Source: Candidatus Nomurabacteria bacterium (lineage in GTDB: Bacteria; Patescibacteriota; Minisyncoccia; Phycocordibacterales; CAIZLB01). Taken from it: a stretch of DNA of 64,000 nucleotides. Position numbers and translations under genes: made by a program. How positions within the stretch are numbered: the first letter of the stretch is position 1; the number at the start of each line of letters is the position of its first letter. The notes below the pieces were generated by a model. The model did not search any database. It was given only the letters and a program-made list of their open reading frames with translations, and was not told where the DNA came from. Positions 521 to 50,708 of the stretch are shown in pieces. Where the stretch lies: the NCBI GenBank assembly GCA_943356525.1, contig CALRFG010000005.1, forward strand, positions 2,921 to 66,920, written 5' to 3'.

Positions 521-3500
521 ATGGATAATATGTCTACCTCAATAAATAATATTGGCGATAATACACTTTCTTCAAATTTAAAGAGTATTTTACCAAATTG
601 TGACAAAATAGATGCACTGGTTGGATATTTTTATTTCTCTGGATTTAAGGATTTACATAATGAATTAGCAGATAAACAGATAAGAATATTGGTTGGAATG
701 GATATTGATAAAAAGATTATAGATAAAGTTTCAACATTAAAAGATCTTAATTTAGATTCACATACAACTGATACAAAAATATCTTCTAGATCTGGATCAA
801 AGGATGATTATATTGAAAATTTTTCAAGGATTTTTAACGACACAGACTTTTTTGACAATGATGAGTCACAAAAATCTTTTGAGGTATTTCTGGATAAAAT
901 CAAAGACGGTAGTTTACAAATTAAAAAAACTCCACAAGCAAATCATTCTAAATTTTATATATTACATAATAAACCCGAATTCTCGACAAATGGAATAACT
1001 CCGGGTATTGTCATAGAAGGATCTAGTAACCTAACTTTCTCAGGTCTAAAAGGTCAAGGTGAGCATAATCGTATTTTAACCGAAAAACATTATTATGAAG
1101 AGGATGTTAAAAGATTTAATGAGACATGGGCTGATCCTAATAACATTATCATAACAGATTTAGATTCCGCAGAGAGTTTTATAAAAGAGATAAAAGATAA
1201 AATATGGCTCTATGCTCTGCCTGATCCAATGTTGATGTACTATAAGGTTTTAAGTGAGTATTTTGCAGTCTCCGAAATAGAAGATATGAAAACCCCAAAA
1301 CATATAACAGGCGGGAAGTTCTCTGATCTTAAGTATCAAAAAGATGCGATTAATCTAGGTATAGATCGTATTAAGAAATTCGGCGGCGTGATTATTGCTG
1401 ACGTGGTGGGTTTAGGTAAAAGTATTATCGCTTCTGCAATAGCTCATAATTTAGGATATAAAACTATAATCATTGCACCACCTCATCTTGAAAGTCAATG
1501 GAAAGATTATGCATCGGAATTTGATTTTAAGGGTCATATTTATTCAACAGGAAAAATAGAAGATGCCCTTCAAAGACATGAAGACGATAAAGGTAAGTTG
1601 TTAATAATACTAGATGAGGCTCATAAACACCGAAATGAGGATACTGGTAATTATAAATCTCTGCACAGACTTTGTGCAGGTAATTATGTAATGGCTTTAT
1701 CTGCAACACCTTTTAATAACGACCCAAAAGATATTTATGCCTTAATTAAATTATTTAGTACCCCCGGTCAATCAACAATAAGGACTGTTGAAAATTTAAG
1801 TATGTCATTCCATATGTTATTTAAAAGATACAAGGCTGTTCGGAGGGATTTAAGAAAAAATTCAAAAGATGAATCAGATGGTTCCGAAATTAAGATAGAA
1901 CTTCATTCAATTGCTGATGAATTAAGAAAAATGATCGAACCTCTTATTATAAGACGTTCTAGACTTGATTTGGAAGAGATCGATGAATATCGAGAGGACT
2001 TAAAAGCACAAGGTGTTGCTTTTGCGAAAGTAAAAGATCCTCAATTGTTAGAGTATGACCTTGGAGAAATGTTTGATTTATATGTTGAAACTCTTGAGAA
2101 GATAGCACCTGAAGATAAAAGTACTAGTTTTATAGGTGCCAGATATAAACCAGCGTCATATATAAATGAAGGATCAAAATTTTTAGAAAAACTTATTGAG
2201 CAGGATGATGAGGATGGTATGTCTGCTGAAGAAAAGTTGCAGAGAATTACTCAAGCGCAAAGTAACCTCGCTCGTTTTATGAGAAGACTTTTGGTACGTC
2301 GTTTTGAAAGTTCTATAGGTGCTTTCAAGTTGTCTTTAAAAAATATGATTGATTCTTCTGAAATAATGTTAGATTGGTATGTGAATCGTCGTGAGGTTCC
2401 TATATTTAAAAAAGGAATGTTGCCAGATACAGAATATTTAGATGAATTACCTGACAATGAGTTAGATGCTTTGATTCTAAATTTAGAAGAAAAAGGTTTG
2501 ATTAGAATACCTATTAATGAATTAAAATCTGACTTTATCAATGATCTTCAGCATGATATTAGTATATTAAGAGATATAGATAATGCTTGGTCAAACAAAA
2601 CAACTGATCCTAAATATAATTTTTTCAAACAAAAAATTATTCAATCACTTGAAGAAAATTCAAATAGAAAAATTGTAGTATTTACCGAATTCTCTGACAC
2701 TGCTAATTATGTGTTTGAAAAGTTAAAAAAAGATGGATTAAATAGGGCTTTTAAATATAGTTCTGAAGACGCATCTGATGATAATAAAAAAATAATAAAA
2801 CAAAACTTTGACGCAGGTTTAGATGAATCAAAACAGGTTAACGATTTTGATATTATTATTGCCACTGATGCAATTTCAGAAGGGTTCAATCTTCACAGGG
2901 CGGGTGCAATTATTAACTATGACATACCTTATAATCCAACACGTGTAATTCAACGTGTTGGACGTATTAATCGTATAAACAGAAAAGTGTTTGAAGAATT
3001 GTATATCTATAACTTTTTCCCAACACTTACTGGTGAAAAAGAAACAAGAACTAAAGCTATATCTACACTTAAGATGGATTTGATCCACACCCTTTTAGGT
3101 GAAGATACTAAAACCTTAACTTCAGAAGAGGATCTTCATAATTATTTTGCAAAACAATATAATGAAGAAAATAATAAAAATGAAAGTTTATCTTGGGATG
3201 CTCCATATAGAAACATGTGGCTTAAGATAAAAGATGATAAGAATATTATGGATCAAATATCTCGTATTCCTCATCGATCAAGAATTGCACGTAAAAATAA
3301 AGATGTCGATGGTGTTGTAGCTTTTGCAAAAAAAGGAAGTAGTTATGTGTTTGCTTTTGGTAAAACACCTGAAACCGTTGAAATAGTTTCTCCAAGAATT
3401 GCATTACCTTTATTTAATCAAGTTCTAGATTCTGAAACATCCTCACAGACAACTGTAAATTTTGATCCTATATACAAAATGGCAAAAGATCACATCTTTA

Positions 3501-3823
3501 AAGATAATACAAAAGCATCTGTTGATGGAGGTAGAAAGCAAGATTCTCTGAATAGAATTAAATTATTAAGTGAATTGTATCCACAAGCAAAAGATTTGTG
3601 TTTAGATATTATAAGATCAATCAAAGATCTGGATGCGTTACCAAATGGTGTTCTTAAGGAAATTGTTGAACTTCGTATTGATAAAACTAATCCAGAAAAA
3701 GCGTATCTTGAACTAAAAGAACTTATCCCAAGTAAATATCTAGAAAGTATATTTGAAACTGCTGATAGAGCAAATGATGATAGTCAACTAATTGTTCTTT
3801 CTGAAGAATTAATTAAAATATGA
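521..3823 (+). CDS. Fusion of an HKD (phospholipase-D family) nuclease domain and an SNF2-family helicase. Likely the restriction/translocase subunit of an RM-like defence module.
   Basis: The N-terminus carries HSKFYILHNK...GSSNLT (HxK(x)4D...GSxN PLD motif). Helicase motif I is ADVVGLGKSIIA, motif II is ILDEAHKHRN (DEAH), and motif III is SNF2-type LSATPFNNDPKDIYALIKLF. The C-lobe reads IIIATDAISEGFNLH...QRVGRINR. The gene overlaps the next gene by ATGA. Confidence 0.8.
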   Translation: MDNMSTSINNIGDNTLSSNLKSILPNCDKIDALVGYFYFSGFKDLHNELADKQIRILVGMDIDKKIIDKVSTLKDLNLDSHTTDTKISSRSGSKDDYIENFSRIFNDTDFFDNDESQKSFEVFLDKIKDGSLQIKKTPQANHSKFYILHNKPEFSTNGITPGIVIEGSSNLTFSGLKGQGEHNRILTEKHYYEEDVKRFNETWADPNNIIITDLDSAESFIKEIKDKIWLYALPDPMLMYYKVLSEYFAVSEIEDMKTPKHITGGKFSDLKYQKDAINLGIDRIKKFGGVIIADVVGLGKSIIASAIAHNLGYKTIIIAPPHLESQWKDYASEFDFKGHIYSTGKIEDALQRHEDDKGKLLIILDEAHKHRNEDTGNYKSLHRLCAGNYVMALSATPFNNDPKDIYALIKLFSTPGQSTIRTVENLSMSFHMLFKRYKAVRRDLRKNSKDESDGSEIKIELHSIADELRKMIEPLIIRRSRLDLEEIDEYREDLKAQGVAFAKVKDPQLLEYDLGEMFDLYVETLEKIAPEDKSTSFIGARYKPASYINEGSKFLEKLIEQDDEDGMSAEEKLQRITQAQSNLARFMRRLLVRRFESSIGAFKLSLKNMIDSSEIMLDWYVNRREVPIFKKGMLPDTEYLDELPDNELDALILNLEEKGLIRIPINELKSDFINDLQHDISILRDIDNAWSNKTTDPKYNFFKQKIIQSLEENSNRKIVVFTEFSDTANYVFEKLKKDGLNRAFKYSSEDASDDNKKIIKQNFDAGLDESKQVNDFDIIIATDAISEGFNLHRAGAIINYDIPYNPTRVIQRVGRINRINRKVFEELYIYNFFPTLTGEKETRTKAISTLKMDLIHTLLGEDTKTLTSEEDLHNYFAKQYNEENNKNESLSWDAPYRNMWLKIKDDKNIMDQISRIPHRSRIARKNKDVDGVVAFAKKGSSYVFAFGKTPETVEIVSPRIALPLFNQVLDSETSSQTTVNFDPIYKMAKDHIFKDNTKASVDGGRKQDSLNRIKLLSELYPQAKDLCLDIIRSIKDLDALPNGVLKEIVELRIDKTNPEKAYLELKELIPSKYLESIFETADRANDDSQLIVLSEELIKI

Positions 3824-6800
3824 AATTAAACGAAAAATACAATCAAACTTATTTTACTGAATTTGTGGCAAATCTTTTACCAGAAGATTTTGTTTTACGT
3901 GAGGAAGATATAATAATTAAAAAAGATAGGTATAAGGAAATAACCAAGGCAAAAGAACTTGGTTTTTGTAAGTCTTTAGATTTACATGTTTTAGAAATGG
4001 ATCATAATCACAACAAAGACCCTAGGGTTATTATTGCTACTGATGCGTTTAAGATATTGGCAGATCATTGGATTAATAAGGCACTAGTTATATTTAAAAA
4101 TAACGATTCAGAAAATTATCGTCTCTCGTACCTAACCATAAATCTTGATTTAAATGATAAAAACAAAATAATTAAAAATTACTCTAATGCCAGAAGATAT
4201 TCATTTTATCTAGGTGTTGGTGCTAAAACAAAAACACCTGAACAACAACTTTTGGGGAAGGGTAAGATAAAAGACCTAGAGGATTTACTTAACAGGTTTT
4301 CTGTTGAGGTAGTTAATAAACAGTTCTATTTAGAAGTTGCTAAGTTTTTCGACGAACTTGTTTCTGTTGATAAAGAAAATTTGGTTACACTTAATCCATT
4401 AAATGTTGGTTTAAACGCTCGAAAAAGTTTTGCTGTAAGACTTATTGGACGTATTATGTTTTGTTGGTTTCTTAAGCAAAAAAAATCTGACAGAGGTCAA
4501 TTAATTCCAGATGAAATACTGTCCTCTAAGGCTGTGTCTGGTAATTATTATCACAACATTTTAGAGCCTTTATTTTTTGGTATTTTAAACACAAGTATTG
4601 ACGCACGTGACATAAGAAGTGAATTATTTGATAATGTTCCTTATTTAAACGGTGGATTATTTAATCCTCAGGCTGATGATTATTATGAGTTAAATCGTGA
4701 TACTTTTGTTTCTAAATATGTAGATATTTTTACTATAAAAGATGATTGGTTTATAAAATTCTTTGAGCTTCTAGAGTTGTATAATTTCACCATTGATGAG
4801 AATACTGTTTTTGATCAAGAATTGTCTGTTGATCCTGAAATGTTGGGTCGTATTTTTGAAAATTTACTTGCTGAAATTAATCCAGAGACAGGTAGTAGTG
4901 AGCGTAAAAGAACAGGTAGTTTTTATACACCAAGGCAGATTGTAGAGTACATGGTTGATCAATCGTTGATTGAATATTTAGAAATAAATACTGGTATAGA
5001 AAATGGGAAAATAGCCGCCCTCGTTAGTTATGATTTAAATGATGATACAGAAAACCCTATTAATGATGAAGAAAAAAAGAAAATTATATATGCTCTTGAA
5101 TCTTTAAAGATATTAGATCCTGCCTGTGGATCTGGTGCTTATCCAATAGGTGTATTACAAAAAATTGTATATATACTTCAACAAATTGATCCAGATTGTA
5201 CCATGTGGTTAGATGAAAAACTTGTGGGTGTGTCGGATTTATATAAACAAAAAATAATCAACGAGGTAAAACAAAATCCTTTTGACTACACTAGAAAATT
5301 AGATGTAATTAAGAATTCTATTTTTGGTGTTGATATTCAACCCATTGCTGTAGATGTGGCTCGTTTAAGATGTTTCCTGACTTTGATTGTAGAATCTGAA
5401 ATTAATGATACAAAACCAAATAGGGGTATAGAACCATTACCAAACTTAGATTTTAAATTTGTGTGTGCTAACACTCTTATATCAGCACCTGAGCAAAGTA
5501 TTGAAGATGAAAACACTCTCTTCGGTGATTTTTTTCAAGAAAAAATGACTTCTGCCATAGATAGATATTTTTCATCATCTGGAGAAAATAAAAGAAGTGC
5601 TAATAATGAAATACATAAATTAATTGATGGAAAAATAGAAGAAAAAATAGGTCATATTGCAAATTTCACTTCACTTGGAGGTATTAAAGAGATTGAAGAG
5701 ATGCTTATAAAGGCTAATAAAAAAGATATAGACAAACATTCAAATATACTTAAATTATGGGCTAGTTATAAAAATATTTTTGAAAATAAACCTGTAGATT
5801 TTTTTGATACTAAATATTTTTTCCCGGGAATTAAAGATGGTTTTGATATAGTTATAGGTAATCCTCCTTATGTTCAAATTCAGAAGTTTTCAGGTACTGA
5901 GGTACAAAAAAATCTCCAAGATCAAAATTATAAAACTTTTGAAAAAACAGGTGACTTGTATGCTTTATTTTATGAGAGGGGTTTAATGTTAACAAAAAAG
6001 GATTATGGATTGCTTTGTTATATTACTTCAAATAAGTGGATGAGATCTGAATACGGAAGATCTCTTCGTCAATATTTTGTTGAACATGATCCTAAGATTC
6101 TTATTGATCTTGGGGGAAATGTTTTTGAATCTGCTACTGTTGATACGAATATTTTATTAATACAAAATAGAAAAAACAGAAAAGAAACAAGCGTGGTTTC
6201 TGTTAAAAGCGATAAGGGTGAATTTGGTACTCAAATAAAAAAAGATTCTATAAATATGTCTTTTTCAAACAACGACGGTTGGTTCATTGGATCTTTGTCA
6301 GAAATAGGTTTGAAAAATAAGATAGAAAAAATAGGAAAAAGACTTAAAGATTGGGATATTAAAATAAATTATGGAATAAAAACAGGTTACAATGAAGCTT
6401 TTGTTATCACAAAAGAAAAAAGAGATGAATTAATAAGTAAAGATTTTAAATCAGCTGAAATTATAAAGCCGATATTAAGAGGTAGAGATATAAAAAGATA
6501 TGCTTATGATTTTAAAGATTTGTATATTATAGCAACTGGTTATGATTTAGATGTGCCAAATATGTACCCAGCTATTTTTAATCATTTAAAACAATTTGAA
6601 CAAAAAGCAAAAAAGAGATGTGATAAGGGTAAGAATTGGTGGAATCTTCGGGCCTGTGTTTACTACGATGATTTTGCAAAAGATAAGGTTGTATGGGCAG
6701 AGACAGATCAAAACCTGAATAGTGTTTTAATTTCTGACGAATTTTATTTACAGAAAACTTGCTTTATGATTACTGGATCCAACTTGAAGTACATAAATGC

Positions 6801-7086
6801 TTTATTAAATTCAAAAATTTCTCAATATAATATTAGATCAATATGCTCTGGTTTAGGAGAAAAGGGTATGAGTTTAACCAAAGAATCAGTATCTAAGTTA
6901 CAAATTCCACCTATCACTAAAGAAAATCAAGATATTATTTCTAATATAGAAGCACTTGCTGGTCAAATCATTGAAGCAAAAAAATCAAATCTAGATTTAA
7001 CCACAAAGCATTTAGAAGCAAAAATTGATGATCTTGTATATAAACTATATGAATTGACTGAAAATGAAATAAAAATTATAGATTAA
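3820..7086 (+). CDS. Eco57I/MmeI/PglX-family (gamma-class) N6-adenine DNA methyltransferase with a C-terminal target-recognition domain. DrmMI/Type IIG-like.
   Basis: SFYTPRQIVEYMVDQ (FYTP motif X) is followed by ILDPACGSGAYP (motif I, FxGxG) and IVIGNPPYVQIQ (motif IV, NPPY). About 330 aa precede the MTase core and a ~380-aa C-terminal region is typical of a TRD. The 4-bp overlap with the upstream helicase implies translational coupling. Confidence 0.8.
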   Translation: MKLNEKYNQTYFTEFVANLLPEDFVLREEDIIIKKDRYKEITKAKELGFCKSLDLHVLEMDHNHNKDPRVIIATDAFKILADHWINKALVIFKNNDSENYRLSYLTINLDLNDKNKIIKNYSNARRYSFYLGVGAKTKTPEQQLLGKGKIKDLEDLLNRFSVEVVNKQFYLEVAKFFDELVSVDKENLVTLNPLNVGLNARKSFAVRLIGRIMFCWFLKQKKSDRGQLIPDEILSSKAVSGNYYHNILEPLFFGILNTSIDARDIRSELFDNVPYLNGGLFNPQADDYYELNRDTFVSKYVDIFTIKDDWFIKFFELLELYNFTIDENTVFDQELSVDPEMLGRIFENLLAEINPETGSSERKRTGSFYTPRQIVEYMVDQSLIEYLEINTGIENGKIAALVSYDLNDDTENPINDEEKKKIIYALESLKILDPACGSGAYPIGVLQKIVYILQQIDPDCTMWLDEKLVGVSDLYKQKIINEVKQNPFDYTRKLDVIKNSIFGVDIQPIAVDVARLRCFLTLIVESEINDTKPNRGIEPLPNLDFKFVCANTLISAPEQSIEDENTLFGDFFQEKMTSAIDRYFSSSGENKRSANNEIHKLIDGKIEEKIGHIANFTSLGGIKEIEEMLIKANKKDIDKHSNILKLWASYKNIFENKPVDFFDTKYFFPGIKDGFDIVIGNPPYVQIQKFSGTEVQKNLQDQNYKTFEKTGDLYALFYERGLMLTKKDYGLLCYITSNKWMRSEYGRSLRQYFVEHDPKILIDLGGNVFESATVDTNILLIQNRKNRKETSVVSVKSDKGEFGTQIKKDSINMSFSNNDGWFIGSLSEIGLKNKIEKIGKRLKDWDIKINYGIKTGYNEAFVITKEKRDELISKDFKSAEIIKPILRGRDIKRYAYDFKDLYIIATGYDLDVPNMYPAIFNHLKQFEQKAKKRCDKGKNWWNLRACVYYDDFAKDKVVWAETDQNLNSVLISDEFYLQKTCFMITGSNLKYINALLNSKISQYNIRSICSGLGEKGMSLTKESVSKLQIPPITKENQDIISNIEALAGQIIEAKKSNLDLTTKHLEAKIDDLVYKLYELTENEIKIID

Positions 7087-7394
7087 CTTTGTTAATAGTG
7101 TGGTGTTGGTAACTTAACTACACAAATCCTTTTTATTAAGCTAAGCTTTAAAAGTACCTAAAAAATTGGTATAATCAAATCACAATTTAACAGTCGACCT
7201 AACCCCTAAAAGCCTTGTGTTTCTAGGATATGGTTGCAAATCCGTCCAAAGTAAAGAACTCCTAGTCAGGGTTCACTTTGGACGGTCATATCTGGAAACA
7301 GGTATGGACACTCCCTACGGGGTTTGTCGACCTGGCTAGGAGCTTTTTACTACCTAGTCAGATCACAATTAATCATAAAAAACCGTCCAAATTT

Positions 7395-7777: not shown

Positions 7778-8311
7778 TTACTCACTCTCATAGGTTTCTT
7801 GTTCGTCAGATTGATCCATCATTTCCTTGAATGTTCCGTTGTGTACCATCTCAACTAATTTTTCTACCTCTTCCTCAGACATGTTTTCTTTCTCGGCTAC
7901 ATATGCAATATTCTCTAAGTATTCCATCTCTTCTTTCGTTAAAGCAATAACGTTAGGTATGCGAGCATGTGCATATGCTGGAGAATCGTGATAATTCCTG
8001 TCTTTCAAAGTTTCAATTCTGTATTTTCGGTTCATGTAATTACCATGATTGTTTTCAAGATAGAATTTGATAGCACCGAAGTGACCTTCTTTAATCTTTT
8101 TGAACAATGCAGACTCTGTAAGCTCAATCATACACTTGTGTCCTTCTTGTAATGCTCCATTTACATTGATTTGAAACATCTTATCGCTCCTCATCCAACG
8201 ATAGAAAGTGTTACGAGATATACCAACTTTTTTGGTCGCATGGTTTATGAAAGGGGCATCACGAAGAATATCGACGATATCTTGCTTAAACTTGTTGTGG
8301 TTGAGACTCAT
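7778..8311 (-). CDS. Phage-type HTH DNA-binding protein, terminase small subunit-like.
   Basis: ATKKVGISRNTFYRWMRSDKMF helix-turn-helix near the N-terminus and an acidic C-terminus. Its start overlaps the upstream ParB-MTase stop by 26 bp. This pairing is common in phage packaging modules. Confidence 0.4.
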   Translation of the reverse strand: MSLNHNKFKQDIVDILRDAPFINHATKKVGISRNTFYRWMRSDKMFQINVNGALQEGHKCMIELTESALFKKIKEGHFGAIKFYLENNHGNYMNRKYRIETLKDRNYHDSPAYAHARIPNVIALTKEEMEYLENIAYVAEKENMSEEEVEKLVEMVHNGTFKEMMDQSDEQETYESE

Positions 8312-9659
8312 GAATTTTTACCCGTTTTTTACCGGTTAATTTTTCCCAACGATTTAGTATTACTTCAGCATACACAGGAGACTTCTCCATGATGAAGCAT
8401 TTTCTGTGTAGCTTTGTTGAAGCGATAAGTGTCGATCCAGATCCACCGAAAGGTTCAAGAACGAGCTGTCCTCGTTTGGTGAGTACTTTGATATATGGAA
8501 TCAGAATCTCGATTGGTTTCGTACCGAATATTATCCCTTGTCCCGATGACTTCTCATCAGCTGCATTGTAATCAATGAAATCAGTTGGACAGAATTTCTT
8601 TCCTTTACCATATGACTCCCAATGAGGTTTACCTTGAATAGCAAAGAGGGCGGTCTCGTATTCATTCTGTAATAACTGATCATCTTCAGGTTCAATATCA
8701 CATTCGATATTTTCATCCGATGTAGCAACCATGGCTATGTCATGTTTGTTAAAGAACTTATGAGTTCCTGCATAACCTTGATTACGATTCGGAAGTCTCC
8801 ACACGACCATGTTTCTTACTTTCCAATGCTTATCCATCTCACCCCAAATGGTTCGAATGTTTTTCCAATTCTCATAGCAAATGATTGAGAAATCTTTTGC
8901 TTGAACTTTGGTGACGTTTGCCATCCATAATTCTGTGAAGTTGTCAGGTAATATATCTGTCTCAAGATATCTGCGATTTTTCTTAGCACCAAATCCTGTA
9001 ACAGCATCTCCATGTTTTCCTTTACCGTGTAGGTAATCTAGAATATATGGAGGATCTGTCATCACCATGTCTACCTTATTTTCGCCACATAGCATCAGCA
9101 TGTTTTCTTCGATGGTGGAATCACCGCACATTAAGCGTGATCCATCTAGATCATATATGTCACCTTTTTGCACCGTTACGTTTTCAATACCAACCTTACT
9201 CAACTCTTTTTCAAGATCAAATATGGTTTCGGTATCCTCGTCCTCGAATATCTGATCAAGCTCAATAGAATCAAATCCCAAGTCTTCAAGAAATGACTCG
9301 TCGAACTTAGCTAATAATTCTAAATCCCATTCACCCTGGTTTTTGTTAAGACGAAGACACAGCTCTTTTTCTTTATCTAGATCTGGAATATTAATGTATA
9401 CGACAGGAACTTCTGTGTATCCAAGCTCTTTGAGAACTTTGAGTCTGAAGTTTCCTCCGATGACAATATTTTTTCTTTCTTCGGCAGAGTTGGCAAGGAT
9501 AGGATCAACTATGCCGTAGCGAGTGATACTATCTTTTAACTCTTTTGTATTTTGTTCTGACCAAGTCCGTGGATTATAGTCAGGGGAGATTAGTAAGTTT
9601 GTTTCGATGTACACGACATCAAGTTTTGGATCATTTGACCCTATGTTTATGTTTTGCAT
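8286..9659 (-). CDS. ParB-like nuclease domain fused to a beta-class (N4-C/N6-A) DNA methyltransferase. Phage-type orphan methylase.
   Basis: The N-terminus is ParBc-like (YNPRTWSEQNTKELKDSITRYGIVDPILAN). The MTase has motif IV VMTDPPY upstream of motif I FGGSGST, which is the beta-class order. Confidence 0.8.
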   Translation of the reverse strand: MQNINIGSNDPKLDVVYIETNLLISPDYNPRTWSEQNTKELKDSITRYGIVDPILANSAEERKNIVIGGNFRLKVLKELGYTEVPVVYINIPDLDKEKELCLRLNKNQGEWDLELLAKFDESFLEDLGFDSIELDQIFEDEDTETIFDLEKELSKVGIENVTVQKGDIYDLDGSRLMCGDSTIEENMLMLCGENKVDMVMTDPPYILDYLHGKGKHGDAVTGFGAKKNRRYLETDILPDNFTELWMANVTKVQAKDFSIICYENWKNIRTIWGEMDKHWKVRNMVVWRLPNRNQGYAGTHKFFNKHDIAMVATSDENIECDIEPEDDQLLQNEYETALFAIQGKPHWESYGKGKKFCPTDFIDYNAADEKSSGQGIIFGTKPIEILIPYIKVLTKRGQLVLEPFGGSGSTLIASTKLHRKCFIMEKSPVYAEVILNRWEKLTGKKRVKIHESQPQQV

Positions 9660-10083
9660 GGTTTTGTTGTTTTTGTTGAGACGTCTTACTATAGGACAGT
9701 AAAACTATCTCGTTATTACAACTTCTTACGAAGAGGGGTCAGTGATGTATTTTCATTATTGCACTATAAAAAATCTTAGCAAGTGGTATGTGTTAATAAG
9801 TCTTATATTATAGCACTGCTATAATATCCTTATACAGTAAGGCTTTTATGTGTATCATTTGTAACATTTTTGTCAAAACACCTATGTTTTTCAATGAATT
9901 GTCGTTCAAAAATGATACACATAATTTTTCTATTTTTATACTAAAAAGTATCGGTTTGACACATGTATTTTATTGTTTTATATAAATATATTACTTATCA
10001 ATATCAATATTTTATTGCAAAGATGTAAAATTGTTAAAAATATCTATATTGATTTATAGAATGAAAGTAATAAAATTATATAC

Positions 10084-10752
10084 ATGGCAATATCTAAAAA
10101 GGCTATTGAAAATTACGAAAAAAGTTTAAATAAAAAGAATGGTATGAGTATTTTGTATGAACAATCGTCAGGTGGTATGGATAACCTGGCAAAGGTATTT
10201 GATCTTTTGTTTAAATTCAAAGTAGAAGACGATAAGAGAAAAGAAAAGTTAAAAGATTTTCCAAATGGTTTTGAATTAGAGGGTAGGGGTAGAACCTGCT
10301 ATATATGTAAAGACTCAAATTATGGAGATAAACCAAGCTGGTATGATAAATATGGTGTTAAGTGTTTAGTCTGTCAGTACGCTATTAACCAAAATGAGAT
10401 AGATCCAGAACTTATAAAAAGCGATGAGGATTGGTATTCAAAATATGACCTAGAATCTAAGTTTAATTTAAAAACACCGACCATAAGAGGTTGGGTAAAG
10501 AAAGGTCTCCTTAAGGAGAGGATTTTGAGTTGTTATGGAAAAGGTGCACATGTTAGGTTGTACTTAGTAGAAGATAATAAAGATTTTTTACCACCTAAAT
10601 ACATGGTTAAATCAGATATTGTAAATATTAAAGAGGGTGACAGAACTTATTCAAGTTTAGAGCCTTGGTATAATTTTGTTGATCCATACAAACATTTGAA
10701 AGGATATGGAATTATGGAGTATGTGATGGTTAGTGAAAAAGATGGTGAATAA
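10084..10752 (+). CDS. Zinc-ribbon protein (CxxC...CxxC). Candidate retron accessory/effector protein.
   Basis: GRTCYICKDSNYGDKPSWYDKYGVKCLVCQ. It is co-oriented with, and immediately upstream of, the candidate msr/msd and the RT. No recognisable enzymatic motif. Confidence 0.5.
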   Translation: MAISKKAIENYEKSLNKKNGMSILYEQSSGGMDNLAKVFDLLFKFKVEDDKRKEKLKDFPNGFELEGRGRTCYICKDSNYGDKPSWYDKYGVKCLVCQYAINQNEIDPELIKSDEDWYSKYDLESKFNLKTPTIRGWVKKGLLKERILSCYGKGAHVRLYLVEDNKDFLPPKYMVKSDIVNIKEGDRTYSSLEPWYNFVDPYKHLKGYGIMEYVMVSEKDGE

Positions 10753-10802
10753 CTTATATTAGAATAATAATTTTCATGTTATAATACTTATGCTTGTATT
10801 TT

Positions 10803-11014
10803 AAAAACCACCCATTTTTTATCTTTTTATACAAAAGATTTCAAGTTTAAAATCAAAACATAAGACACTGTATAAACTTTACTATAAGACTTCGTCGAAT
10901 AGAATAGTTTGAACAGTTGAGATGTTAGAATTTGTCCCTTGAGAGATTATCTTTTTGAGAGGTATAGTAGTCACATACTAACAATGATCGCAATACAAGT
11001 TAGTGGGGTGGTTT
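10803..11014 (+). ncRNA. Candidate retron msr/msd non-coding RNA bounded by a1/a2 inverted repeats.
   Basis: a1 is aaaaaccaccc (10803-10813) and a2 is ggggtggttt (11005-11014). Their 10-nt cores (10804-10813 vs 11005-11014) are reverse complements at 9/10 positions and lie ~200 nt apart. An extended -10 TGTTATAAT at 10778-10786 sits just upstream, and the RT ORF follows a2. The internal msd stem and the branching G were not confidently resolved. Confidence 0.35.
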
Positions 11015-11129
11015 GGTCGTTGTCCACTTCAACAAATTAAATATATGGATAATATTATTATCACTTTATTTATAATGTATCTCATAATATGTGAGACACA
11101 TAAAAGATAAGACCTTAGTGGATAATAAA

Positions 11130-12005
11130 ATGATATACTCATCCAAAAAAGAACTATTAGAATTTCTAAATATAAAAGAAAATTTTCTTTATCCTGATTT
11201 TTCAAAAAAATATTATACAAAAGAATTAAAAAAGAAAAGTGGAGGTATTCGCTTAATAAAACCTCCGAGTGTTAACCTAAAAAAAGTTCAAAGATTAATT
11301 CTGGATAAAATACTTTATAAACATAAGAACCTTGAGTGTGTGTATGGTTTATCTAAAGATAAAGGTGTTGTTGCAAATGCAAATTTTCATAAGAAAAATT
11401 TTGATAAACAATTGGTAAATTTAGATATAGAAAACTTTTTTACTAATGTTTTAAAAAAAGAGGTCAACAAGGTATTTAAAAGTTTAGGTTTTAATAAAGA
11501 AAATTCAAATATTCTAACAAAAATATGTACGGTGGAAGGTTCTTTACCTCAGGGTGCGCCAACCAGTCCATATTTAGCTTCTTTATCTTGTATAAAAATG
11601 GATAAAGAGATATATAACTATTGTAGAAAACAAAAGTTTACTTATACTCGTTATTTTGACGATATAAGTATTTCTGGAATGAATATTAATGATAAAAATA
11701 TTGTTGATATTGAAAAGATAGTAAACAAAAATAAATTTAATTTAAATAAAACAAAAACTACATTTTATGAAGCAGATTTAGATAAGATTATAAATGGAGT
11801 TTTTATATCCAAAAATGGTTTATCTGTTACTAATAAATATAAAGATGAGGTAAAGAGTTTGTATATTAATTATTTGAAAGATCCCTGTGTTCATAATAAA
11901 AAAGCCTACAAAGGTAAACTTAGTTTTTATTTACATATAAACAAAAAAGAAGCTGTTGATTTTATTAATAAAATAAGCTATCTAACTGGGATTGGACCAG
12001 TGTAG
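11130..12005 (+). CDS. Retron-type reverse transcriptase.
   Basis: The RT motifs are SGGIRLIKPPS (RT1/2), NANFH (NAxxH) directly before LDIENFF (motif A), LPQGAPTSPYLASL (motif B'), YTRYFDDISISG (Y-x-DD), and INGVFIS in the position of the retron VTG motif. The protein is ~290 aa. The track ORF starts at GTG 11091; the ATG at 11130 is preferred. Confidence 0.8.
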   Translation: MIYSSKKELLEFLNIKENFLYPDFSKKYYTKELKKKSGGIRLIKPPSVNLKKVQRLILDKILYKHKNLECVYGLSKDKGVVANANFHKKNFDKQLVNLDIENFFTNVLKKEVNKVFKSLGFNKENSNILTKICTVEGSLPQGAPTSPYLASLSCIKMDKEIYNYCRKQKFTYTRYFDDISISGMNINDKNIVDIEKIVNKNKFNLNKTKTTFYEADLDKIINGVFISKNGLSVTNKYKDEVKSLYINYLKDPCVHNKKAYKGKLSFYLHINKKEAVDFINKISYLTGIGPV

Positions 12006-12035
12006 ACAGCTTGTGTAAGAATGAATTAACGGAAA

Positions 12036-13058
12036 TTACTTCTTTCTTCTTGTGATAAACACGATTGAGAAAATCAAAAGTATCATTATTTGTGACGGTT
12101 CAGGAATTGTTGTGGGTGTTAGGAGGAAAACATTACCATTACTTCCTATACCTGCAATTTGTCCTTGATCGTTAATCACTCGAGGGTAAAAAACACCTCC
12201 AGTCGGATCTAAATCAGAAACAATTTCAATGTCTTTAAAAGTACCATTATCATAGATACGATTTCCAGCAATAATTTGACCCAAATTGTTAATATCTCTC
12301 ATGTCATAATCGGGAAAGTAAGCAGTAACACCGTCTTTCCAAAGAAAACCACCGTTGCTGGACATTCCGATTATTTGACCGTCGTCGTTTATTGCAAATG
12401 ACTCACTATAACTTCCTGTAAGACCAAGACTTGATATGGTACCGTTTTGCCACATAACTGCACTTATTGTTCCTGATCCGTAAGATTTACCAACTGTTAT
12501 ATTGTTGTTATTAATATCATTTGCCTGCGCTCTGGTGTCATTAGAGAGATGAGGTAGGCTAATCGTGATTCCGTTTTCGAGATAAAAGTTACCTCCAAGA
12601 TTTACAGATCCACCTCCGACTACGACACCGCTGTCGTTTATTGAATATGCAATGCTTCCGTTTGATGGACCTATTCCTGTTGTTAATAAATCGGCACCAA
12701 TGTTGTTTTGTAAAACAAAGCTACGATTTACCCCTGGTAAACTAGGGGAAGTGTATGAACCAACCACTTGTCCAGAGTTGTTTACGGAATATGCTCTTGT
12801 AGATGTGTTTGTAAATATTCCACCGAGGTTGTTAAGAATCGTGACCGATCCATTATTCCAGACAATACCTTTGGTTGATGAGTTTGCGCCGTGTAACGAA
12901 TAACCTGTTACAGTTCCTGAATTGTTGATGTCTGTAAGTGTGATTGTGTCACTGAGGTCTGTGTTCGGATTACCAAGGTTGACCGCTGTGTAGAACAGGC
13001 TAGCTGCCGACAGTATTGGACTGAATGCGAGGACGATGATTGAGATGTAAGTTTTCAT
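12036..13058 (-). CDS. Secreted repeat protein with a PEP-CTERM sorting signal (exosortase substrate-like).
   Basis: N-terminal signal peptide MKTYISIIVLAFSPILSAAS. Repeated NxSGxVVG/NDDGQIIG modules. The C-terminus ...TTIPEPSQIMILLIFSIVFITRRKK has PEP, a TM helix and a basic tail. Confidence 0.65.
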   Translation of the reverse strand: MKTYISIIVLAFSPILSAASLFYTAVNLGNPNTDLSDTITLTDINNSGTVTGYSLHGANSSTKGIVWNNGSVTILNNLGGIFTNTSTRAYSVNNSGQVVGSYTSPSLPGVNRSFVLQNNIGADLLTTGIGPSNGSIAYSINDSGVVVGGGSVNLGGNFYLENGITISLPHLSNDTRAQANDINNNNITVGKSYGSGTISAVMWQNGTISSLGLTGSYSESFAINDDGQIIGMSSNGGFLWKDGVTAYFPDYDMRDINNLGQIIAGNRIYDNGTFKDIEIVSDLDPTGGVFYPRVINDQGQIAGIGSNGNVFLLTPTTIPEPSQIMILLIFSIVFITRRKK

Positions 13059-46808: not shown

Positions 46809-47071
46809 AGACGACCATACAGTATGATAATAAACCAACGAAAAAAACGGATATAAAGACCAAAGCAATAGCTTAAAGTTTTCATATCCGCTTTTCGTTG
46901 AAAGCGGATTTTCCTTCGCAAATTGACAATTACAAACCTTCGCGTAAACAAATTGTTGAGTAAACAGTTTGGCAATCGGGATTTCTCAGGAAAGCCCCCG
47001 GTTGAAAAATTAGGTAAACGCAGAAGGATAATTAACATACATTTTCACGATTGTGGTATATGTATTTCCTA

Positions 47072-50465
<3,394 letters not shown>

Positions 50466-50591
50466 ATATGTATATCCAATCGTGAAAGTGTATGTTAATT
50501 AAATTGTAATTGAAAATCAAAAGTACGTGAGCTAAGCGAAAGATTTCTTTCTTGAAATCTGAAAGCTTAGCGAGCGTCATCGAATCTTTTG

Positions 50592-50708
50592 TTCTGGTGA
50601 CTCGTTGGAGGGGCCACACCTGATCTCATTCCGAACTCAGAAGTTAAGCCCTCTTAAGGCGATGGTACAAGCTTTACGCAAGGAGAGTAGCTTGTCGCCG
50701 GAACAAAG
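50592..50708 (+). rRNA. rrf: 5S ribosomal RNA.
   Basis: CCACACCTGATCTCATTCCGAACTCAGAAGTTAAGCCC...GCGATGGTAC...GAGAGTAGCTTGTCGCCGGAA. The terminal helix pairs with the 5' end ttctggtgac. Confidence 0.85.

Follow-up and report, generated by a model that had tools for sequence, protein, structure and literature searches.

A candidate retron variant from Candidatus Nomurabacteria with a small open reading frame within its structured RNA

Retrons are understood as systems of a reverse transcriptase (RT), a non-coding RNA (ncRNA) and a protein effector, and almost all that is known of them comes from Proteobacteria. The 64,000-nt stretch of a Candidatus Nomurabacteria genome analysed here (the window; contig CALRFG010000005.1, positions 2,921 to 66,920) carries at nt 10777–12005 what is probably a self-contained retron-type module of ~1.25 kb, made up of an RNA, a mini-ORF (open reading frame) and an RT (Table 1). 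It would comprise an extended -10 promoter of its own, ~335 nt of structured RNA, a hydrophobic ORF of 21 codons lying within that RNA, and an RT of 295 amino acids (aa). As a combination of RNA, mini-ORF and RT without a protein-sized partner gene, it probably represents a new variant of retron. Within the literature library searched, no paper came up on retrons in the ultra-small bacteria of the Candidate Phyla Radiation (CPR), or on retrons with small transmembrane effectors. According to a review, diversity-generating retroelements account for ~80% of the RTs of CPR bacteria (PMC8632793).

Table 1. Features of the retron-type module and its upstream neighbour (positions in the window)
Feature	Position (nt)	Strand	Remarks
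Zinc-ribbon protein with Xis/MerR-type helix-turn-helix (HTH), 222 aa	10084–10752	+	neighbour outside the retron module
Extended -10 promoter of the module, TGTTATAAT	10777–10785	+	from sequence; similar box in homologues
Leader block A, CTTGTATT	10793–10800	+	at or near RNA 5' end; pairs with A' (10992–10999)
Leader block B, AAACCACCC	10805–10813	+	'a1' of the preliminary description; pairs with B' (11006–11014)
Hairpin hp1 (ATCTTTT...AAAAGAT)	10821–10839	+	short, conserved; RNAalifold
Variable long imperfect hairpin (VH)	10843–10931	+	shape kept, sequence not
Main helix, 5' strand (candidate a1), TTGTCC / TTGAG / TTATCTTTT	10932–10955	+
GAGAGG	10957–10962	+	invariant in 13 sequences; G10957 candidate priming (branching) G
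Stem-loop SL1 (TAGTA...TACTA), candidate msr	10965–10980	+	GC/AU/GU exchanges
Stem SL2 (ACAATGATC / GGTCGTTGT)	10981–11023	+	loop bears A' and B'
Second TTGTCC repeat and B'' (CCACTTC)	11020–11030	+
Hairpins X (11038–11072) and Y (11075–11101), candidate msd	11038–11101	+	inverted-repeat search, minimum free energy (MFE) folds, covariation
Small ORF (sORF), 21 codons, MDNIIITLFIMYLIICETHKR	11045–11110	+	AUG in hairpin X, stop in a2 strand
Main helix, 3' strand (candidate a2), AAAAGATAAGACCTTAGTGGATAA	11102–11125	+	holds sORF stop and RT start codon
Retron-type RT, 295 aa, GTG start	11118–12005	+	Pfam, PADLOC, NCBIfam, Ec86 similarity

The reverse transcriptase and its relatives

A preliminary description of this DNA had started the RT gene at the ATG at nt 11130, but the conserved start is the GTG at nt 11118; among homologues the start codon alternates between GTG and ATG, the latter occurring in two. 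The RT motifs named in that description are all present in the sequence, namely NANFH (nt 11376–11390), LPQGAPTSP (nt 11544–11570), YFDD (nt 11652–11663) and, in the position of VTG, INGVFIS (nt 11790–11810). The protein matches Pfam RVT_1 (5e-20) and shows no extra domain in the Pfam scan. The best 25 of its 52 PADLOC matches are all retron RT models, with values of 2e-65 for RT_II-A, 2e-64 for RT_III-A and 7e-56 for RT_VI; RT_Ec107-like is not the top match. The closest solved structure is the RT of Ec86 (7v9u, E 3e-31), whereas competing models are far weaker (group II intron 5e-11, Drt2 2e-9). The NANFH motif has the NAxxH form of the retron RT clade, while the VTG of retron RTs is replaced by ING (clade consensus IINxV). 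Judged by these similarities, the enzyme is a retron-type RT, as had been proposed. The clade to which it belongs cannot be assigned to a defined retron type because the PADLOC retron RT models fit all 31 aligned members about equally. Type II-A (the St85/Ec86 family) does not apply, as the score with the NCBIfam model retron_St85_RT (NF038233) is 183.5 bits, below the cut-off of 235, and the neighbourhood holds no effector resembling a nucleoside deoxyribosyltransferase.

About 60 homologues share 45–63% identity with this RT, and are followed by a gap down to ~38%. The close homologues that carry names are from Nomurabacteria, Saccharibacteria and Parcubacteria, and the lineage of the module is confined to the CPR (Patescibacteria). 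A profile scan of IMG/VR returned no relatives of the RT. An exact scan of the same database with AAGACCTYARTGGATAA gave 21 matches, which were taken as chance because none of them adjoins an RT. One relative at 31% identity (L034) lies on a contig labelled Bathyarchaeia archaeon; either this contig is misbinned or the family reaches archaea.

In its relatives the RT is specified by a solitary gene with 340–650 nt of non-coding DNA upstream. Across 16 loci, no protein of at least 60 aa encoded within ~3 kb of the RT is common to more than three, and among the linked genes only the sORF is conserved. In one Nomurabacteria homologue (L015) a DUF3223 protein is encoded at nt 5890–6558 on the same strand and overlaps the RT stop codon by 8 nt; none of the other clade loci compared gave a match to it in the vicinity of the RT.

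The structured RNA and its two folds

Across the clade, the ~335 nt between promoter and RT start are conserved and the flanking sequences are unrelated. The extended -10 element placed 5' of a1 in the preliminary description was confirmed, and a box of the TGnTATAAT type also precedes block A in the homologues read, where the sequence farther upstream is unrelated. A structured RNA lies upstream of the RT on the same strand in 12–17 homologues and contains at least nine covarying helices. Covariation was tested on an alignment of 12 sequences, covering 75 pairs in 13 helices, against slid controls and 500 shuffles. Of all cells, 88.6% were paired, compared with 40–47% in the slid controls, and 25 pairs were changed on both sides (8–13 in the slid controls); neither value was reached by any of the 500 shuffles. 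In every helix tested, cognate strands paired better than non-cognate strands.

Among the individual helices, A/A' has compensatory changes in four of seven pairs, and the duplex energies of cognate and non-cognate strands are distinct (p = 0.0002). Hairpin hp1 shows AU/GC/GU exchanges at its base (RNAalifold) and 97.9% of its cells are paired, and SL2 has compensatory changes in four of eight pairs with 96.8% paired (permutation p < 0.0002). The VH folds of 15 homologues mostly have z values of -2 to -5.8, with two near zero. The segment at nt 11020–11030 has three options for pairing: B' (a helix in which three of seven pairs are compensatory), GAGAGG and, at the RT start, GTGGATAA.

The strongest long-range helix of the RNA joins nt 10932–10955 to nt 11102–11125 (24 nt), and is not the pair singled out in the preliminary description. 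It was detected both by an inverted-repeat search and by RNAalifold, and is tripartite, with TTGTCC/GGATAA and TTGAG/CTCAG followed by an inner helix of 8–10 bp. The sequence of the inner helix varies among homologues but its complementarity is kept, with compensatory changes in six of seven pairs and an energy of -10.6 kcal/mol for cognate strands versus -5.6 kcal/mol for non-cognate strands. All close-clade loci share the a2 core GACCTnAnTGGATAA apart from L024, where it reads ACACCTGAGTGGATAA. When the segment is folded alone, the main helix closes the MFE structure of all 13 homologues, and in one of them (L022) its a1 is shortened, the first repeat unit being absent; in full-length folds it closes that of 10 of 15. 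The invariant GAGAGG comes after the helix with one to three U residues in between and, in the RT clade, can pair with CCNCUC at nt 11024–11030. In the msr-msd of Ec86, the sequence of which matches 48 E. coli genomes at 100% identity, a1 is likewise followed by G, C and GAGAGG, and this GAGAGG pairs with a CCUCU farther downstream. The length of the closed segment is 194 nt in the window (nt 10932–11125) and 170 nt in Ec86.

The main helix is the better candidate for a1/a2 because it has an invariant G at the junction and an Ec86-like layout, because a conserved msr is followed by hairpins in the canonical order, and because it lies directly before the RT. Judged from these sequence features it can be taken, with some reserve, as the likely a1/a2 of an msr-msd. 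The helix would then close an msr-msd of 194 nt, set G10957 against the template and hide the RT start. SL1 and SL2 would form the msr and hairpins X and Y the msd that serves as template, and G10957 at the junction, by analogy with Ec86, would be the priming (branching) residue.

Several observations weigh against this assignment. To our knowledge a translated ORF within an msd is unprecedented, and VH, the most variable long hairpin and the most msd-like, lies outside the main helix. A comparison of G-U content and antisense stability, meant to tell which hairpin is the msd, gave no clear preference: VH, with sense and antisense strands equally stable, has a ratio of 0.98 and 10.9% GU, and X/Y a ratio of 0.84 and 7.6% GU. 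The transcript apparently starts at block A, which would suit the earlier pair as a terminal a1, and the nested MFE fold of the window's own RNA prefers the pairing of B with B'. The comparison with Rfam retron models that the preliminary description proposed as a check, done over nt 9000–13000 at gathering and E ≤ 10 thresholds, returned neither a retron nor any other family. The covariation evidence all comes from 12–17 related sequences, and the RT has ING in place of VTG. Finally, two opposing G residues are canonical at retron a1/a2 (Mestre et al., PMC7736814), whereas in most members the inner end of the main helix has no opposing G, and at either candidate pair the G/G opposition is absent or inconsistent. 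That the msr-msd is of a non-canonical kind is rather unlikely. A permuted msd-msr with VH as template was rejected, since the segments flanking VH are direct and not inverted repeats. In the distant clades with a 60-aa sORF, a1/a2 was sought by eye and nothing convincing was found.

The inverted pair that the preliminary description had taken for a1/a2 (nt 10804–10813 with nt 11005–11014) is real and conserved, but the perfect match covers 9 bp (nt 10805–10813 with nt 11006–11014), the right arm being one base off. A perfect 9-mer inverted repeat of any composition arose in 280 of 500 shuffles of this intergenic region (27% GC), and one with at least five G/C in only 5 of 2000. B and B' are paired in all 12 aligned homologues (100% of cells). 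Their covariation is the weakest of all helices, with one of five pairs compensatory (p = 0.008). As the a1/a2 of the retron this pair is doubtful, with an appreciable minority chance: the pairing itself stands and covaries, but block B is not followed by a conserved G (A or U occupies that position, and hp1 begins with G or A), and it is the other helix that is Ec86-like.

A fuller scheme built on this pair, which is unlikely, would have B/B', together with A/A', close the msr-msd, with hp1 as msr, VH and the conserved block as msd, and the sORF and RT as a downstream operon. The helix at nt 10932–10955/11102–11125 would then serve only in translational control, keeping the RT start hidden as long as reverse transcription and RNase H have not removed the 5' strand of the helix. 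The position of block A at the predicted 5' end of the RNA agrees with such a scheme, as does VH, which has the length, the variability and the stability of both strands that an msd should show. B/B' also closes the MFE fold of the window and of four other homologues, and the sORF would stay outside the template. Against this, besides the weak covariation and the missing G, the 75-nt highly conserved block would be forced into the role of template instead of msr, and it is the other helix that matches Ec86 in the layout of GAGAGG.

Both A/A' and B/B' connect the 140-nt 5' leader to the SL2 loop and cross SL2 and the main helix, so that they must be either pseudoknots or parts of an alternative fold. 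B/B' closes the full-length MFE structure in 5 of 15 homologues, including the window. In that structure the second TTGTCC repeat (nt 11020–11027) pairs with GTGGATAA, so that either fold leaves the RT start paired. The RNA is possibly bistable, and the leader pairings might choose between the two folds.

It is improbable that the locus holds no working retron and that a retron-derived RT is preceded merely by a long regulatory 5' untranslated region (UTR), with no multicopy single-stranded DNA (msDNA) or a different product. The absence of VTG, the replacement of YADD by YFDD, the lack of an Rfam match and the lack of a canonical opposing G would agree with this. On the other hand, the catalytic motifs are intact, the RT is kept in ~60 homologues, and the RNA has the Ec86-like arrangement of a1 and GAGAGG and an elaborate covarying structure well beyond that of a simple UTR.

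The small ORF and the neighbouring genes

All 17 clade members retain the sORF as an open frame of 18–23 aa, with the consensus MELIISLLLILLIL[KR][ED]x[NK]. Its stop codon (nt 11108–11110) lies 7 nt before the RT start, a distance that is 7–16 nt across the clade. Entropy at the three codon positions is 0.91/0.44/1.12. Leucine is specified by five codons among members and arginine by both AGR and CGN, and indel lengths within the conserved N-terminal portion are divisible by three. Synonymous changes make up 35% of differing codon pairs in this frame, versus 13% and 2% in the other two, which are interrupted by stops in 15 and 13 of the 17 sequences. The sORF thus shows a coding signature, and is predicted to be translated.

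In RT clades at 28–47% identity, nearly all members have an ORF of 33–87 aa in the same place. Most of these encode a hydrophobic helix, some overlap the RT start, and a 33-aa form bridges the short and the long versions. The long forms are unannotated and match no family in Pfam or PADLOC, and their database matches number only 15, all hypothetical proteins from Patescibacteria. In most of those distant loci (L025–L095) that were inspected by eye, the 33–87-aa ORF crosses a G+C-rich hairpin, after which a U-run extends up to the RT ATG; in one (L060) the frames of the upstream ORF and the RT overlap at ATGA. Farther upstream, the same loci carry a conserved core, AAGGUCG...UUCGAGRAGGUU-hairpin-GGCYUUUUCGAG. 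Going by this pattern of conservation, the peptide appears to be the only conserved partner of the RT and would be the best candidate for an effector.

A motif resembling a Shine-Dalgarno site precedes only 1 of the 35 window ORFs of at least 150 aa, and in a genome without such sites the accessibility of the start codon is likely to control translation. Several window ORFs have a TATAAT box within ~10–15 nt of the ATG, which suggests that several mRNAs in the window are leaderless or have very short leaders. Since a2 both holds the sORF stop and buries the RT start, translation of the RT would depend on the reading of the sORF or on refolding. Ribosomes translating the mini-ORF would unfold hairpins X and Y along with the inner helix, after which they could reinitiate at the GTG at nt 11118.

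Such coupling might be the whole purpose of the sORF, in which case the locus would be an orphan retron with an upstream leader that links ribosomes to the RT, a peptide without function, and an effector that acts in trans or is absent. The placing of the stop codon within a2 and so close to the RT start would fit this, as would the ATGA overlap of the two frames in some distant relatives and the scarcity of Shine-Dalgarno sites, which should make start accessibility matter; stand-alone msr-msd-RT cassettes also provide a precedent (PMC7736814). The signs of selection at the amino acid level (leucine by five codons, arginine by AGR and CGN, a [KR][ED] pair that is kept) and the persistence of a homologous small protein in RT clades at 28–47% identity speak against a functionless peptide, and the orphan arrangement is considered fairly unlikely.

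A different and quite unlikely function for the peptide follows from the candidate template. If X and Y are the template, msDNA would be antisense to the mini-ORF and its mRNA, which suggests that RT and msDNA could act as a DNA antitoxin to a type-I-like membrane peptide. Reverse transcription together with RNase H would destroy the peptide mRNA in cis, multicopy antisense single-stranded DNA could also silence it in trans, and interference of a phage with the msDNA would release the toxin. Were this true, the module would be a two-gene, CPR-specific retron without a protein effector, the template of which contains the toxin gene. More generally, should the peptide prove to be the partner of the RT, it would be the smallest known retron effector, searches for effectors among annotated genes would be missing such partners, and the module would offer a compact system in which to study the coupling of RNA folding, translation and reverse transcription.

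The preliminary description had envisaged a tripartite retron, in which the 222-aa protein is the effector, the ncRNA is closed by the 10-nt pair, and the RT completes the set. The 222-aa gene and the RT are indeed co-oriented and adjacent, the inverted pair is real and conserved, and upstream DNA-binding partners are present in retrons of types VI, IX and X (Mestre et al., PMC7736814). Linkage and domain content argue otherwise. The gene occurs in 0 of the 16 RT-clade loci, and among six members of its family that were looked up only that of the window (on three near-identical contigs) adjoins an RT. The retron promoter is conserved independently of the 222-aa gene. The HTH domain matches excisionase-like DNA-binding domains of the Xis/Cox/AlpA/MerR type, and no toxin-like domain was detected with Pfam, PADLOC, NCBIfam or the HTH comparison. 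The tripartite arrangement is largely refuted and highly improbable, and the 222-aa protein is not a component of the retron.

Homologues of the 222-aa protein number only 23 among 5.8 billion database proteins, and three of them carry a C-terminal extension of ~115 aa. Searches against Pfam, NCBIfam, PHROGs and PADLOC found nothing beyond a weak match to the mad1 HTH, no Cro/C1 match was found with Pfam or PADLOC, and Foldseek against the PDB returned no match to the whole fold. The homologues are found beside other cargo. One is located after Hachiman HamA/HamB (L006), another has a DnaB_C-like ATPase upstream and an S49 peptidase and a STAND-like NTPase downstream (L007), and a third has Gabija-like genes on one side and McrBC with a type IIG restriction-modification (R-M) system on the other (L011); in the remaining two the adjoining genes specify two large unknown proteins of 272 and 995 aa (L009) or are also unknown (L004). 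Divergently upstream, most of these loci (L004–L011) carry a ParB_N-N6_N4 methylase gene, a small-terminase-like gene and sometimes a large terminase gene. The window repeats the arrangement of ParB-methylase and small-terminase-like genes at nt 7778–9659. The 222-aa gene is read as a DNA-binding gene of a phage-like element and as the conserved anchor of a variable defence hotspot, of which the retron-type module is cargo, at the edge of the element. Members of the Xis-like family would thus mark a defence hotspot in the phage-like elements of CPR bacteria.

Other features of the window may be noted. At nt 521–7086 (+ strand) a PLD(HKD)-SNF2 helicase gene (DrmD-like, with 'HKD+Snf2' PADLOC matches) overlaps by 4 nt a gene for a type IIG R-M enzyme (PADLOC REase_MTase_IIG 5e-142, also DrmMI-like), and the two may form a defence unit. 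Between the R-M gene and the small-terminase-like gene lies a LOOT RNA (RF03000, nt 7196–7324, + strand), with 70.9 bits against a gathering threshold of 46.4. Convergent with the RT, a gene at nt 12036–13058 (- strand) codes for a 340-aa protein without a Pfam family that ends in ...IPEPSQIMILLIFSIVFITRRKK, which we take to resemble a sorting signal of the PEP-CTERM type. A 23S rRNA with a group I intron (nt 49960–50163), followed by a 5S rRNA, occupies nt 47067–50703; such an intron-bearing 23S rRNA is, we assume, consistent with a CPR origin. No match to a small-subunit rRNA family and no tRNA gene were found in the whole 64 kb.

Comparison with known systems

Ec86 (Retron-Eco1, type II-A) is the nearest relative by solved RT structure. 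The two share a similar RT size, an ncRNA immediately upstream in the same orientation, a terminal helix with a G and a GAGAGG after it, the latter pairing with a downstream CCUCU-type segment, and a closed segment of comparable size. Unlike Ec86, the window locus has no gene for a nucleoside deoxyribosyltransferase-like effector and its RT scores below the St85-family cut-off. It also differs in its 140-nt 5' leader, which pairs with the msr, in the mini-ORF of the candidate msd, in the overlap of a2 with the RT start, and in YFDD and ING instead of YADD and VTG.

Type VI retrons likewise have a DNA-binding gene upstream of the RT, and the PADLOC model RT_VI is among those matched. Their partner is a Cro/C1 HTH protein of 91–110 aa accompanied by a small accessory protein, whereas the window protein has 222 aa with a zinc ribbon and an Xis/MerR HTH, and its gene is unlinked to the RT in the other genomes examined; the locus is not of type VI. 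Stand-alone or orphan retrons (Ec107 branch; PMC7736814) resemble the module in being msr-msd-RT cassettes with no linked protein-sized partner, but the window clade always has a small ORF between the RNA core and the RT, with longer homologues in sister clades.

Type IV retrons (Ec48) have a membrane effector with two transmembrane segments, and the candidate effector of the window is also hydrophobic and of the membrane type, although it is a peptide of just 18–23 aa (33–87 aa in relatives) that is encoded within a structured RNA. Peptides of such a size are familiar from type I toxin‒antitoxin systems, which include the ~19-aa Ibs toxins, Hok and Fst. In the window the partner is an RT, unlike in those systems, and no antisense RNA gene is evident from a promoter scan, the only search made for one. 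The likeness to them lies in a very short hydrophobic peptide and in a start codon that is buried in the structure of its own mRNA, here the AUG in hairpin X.

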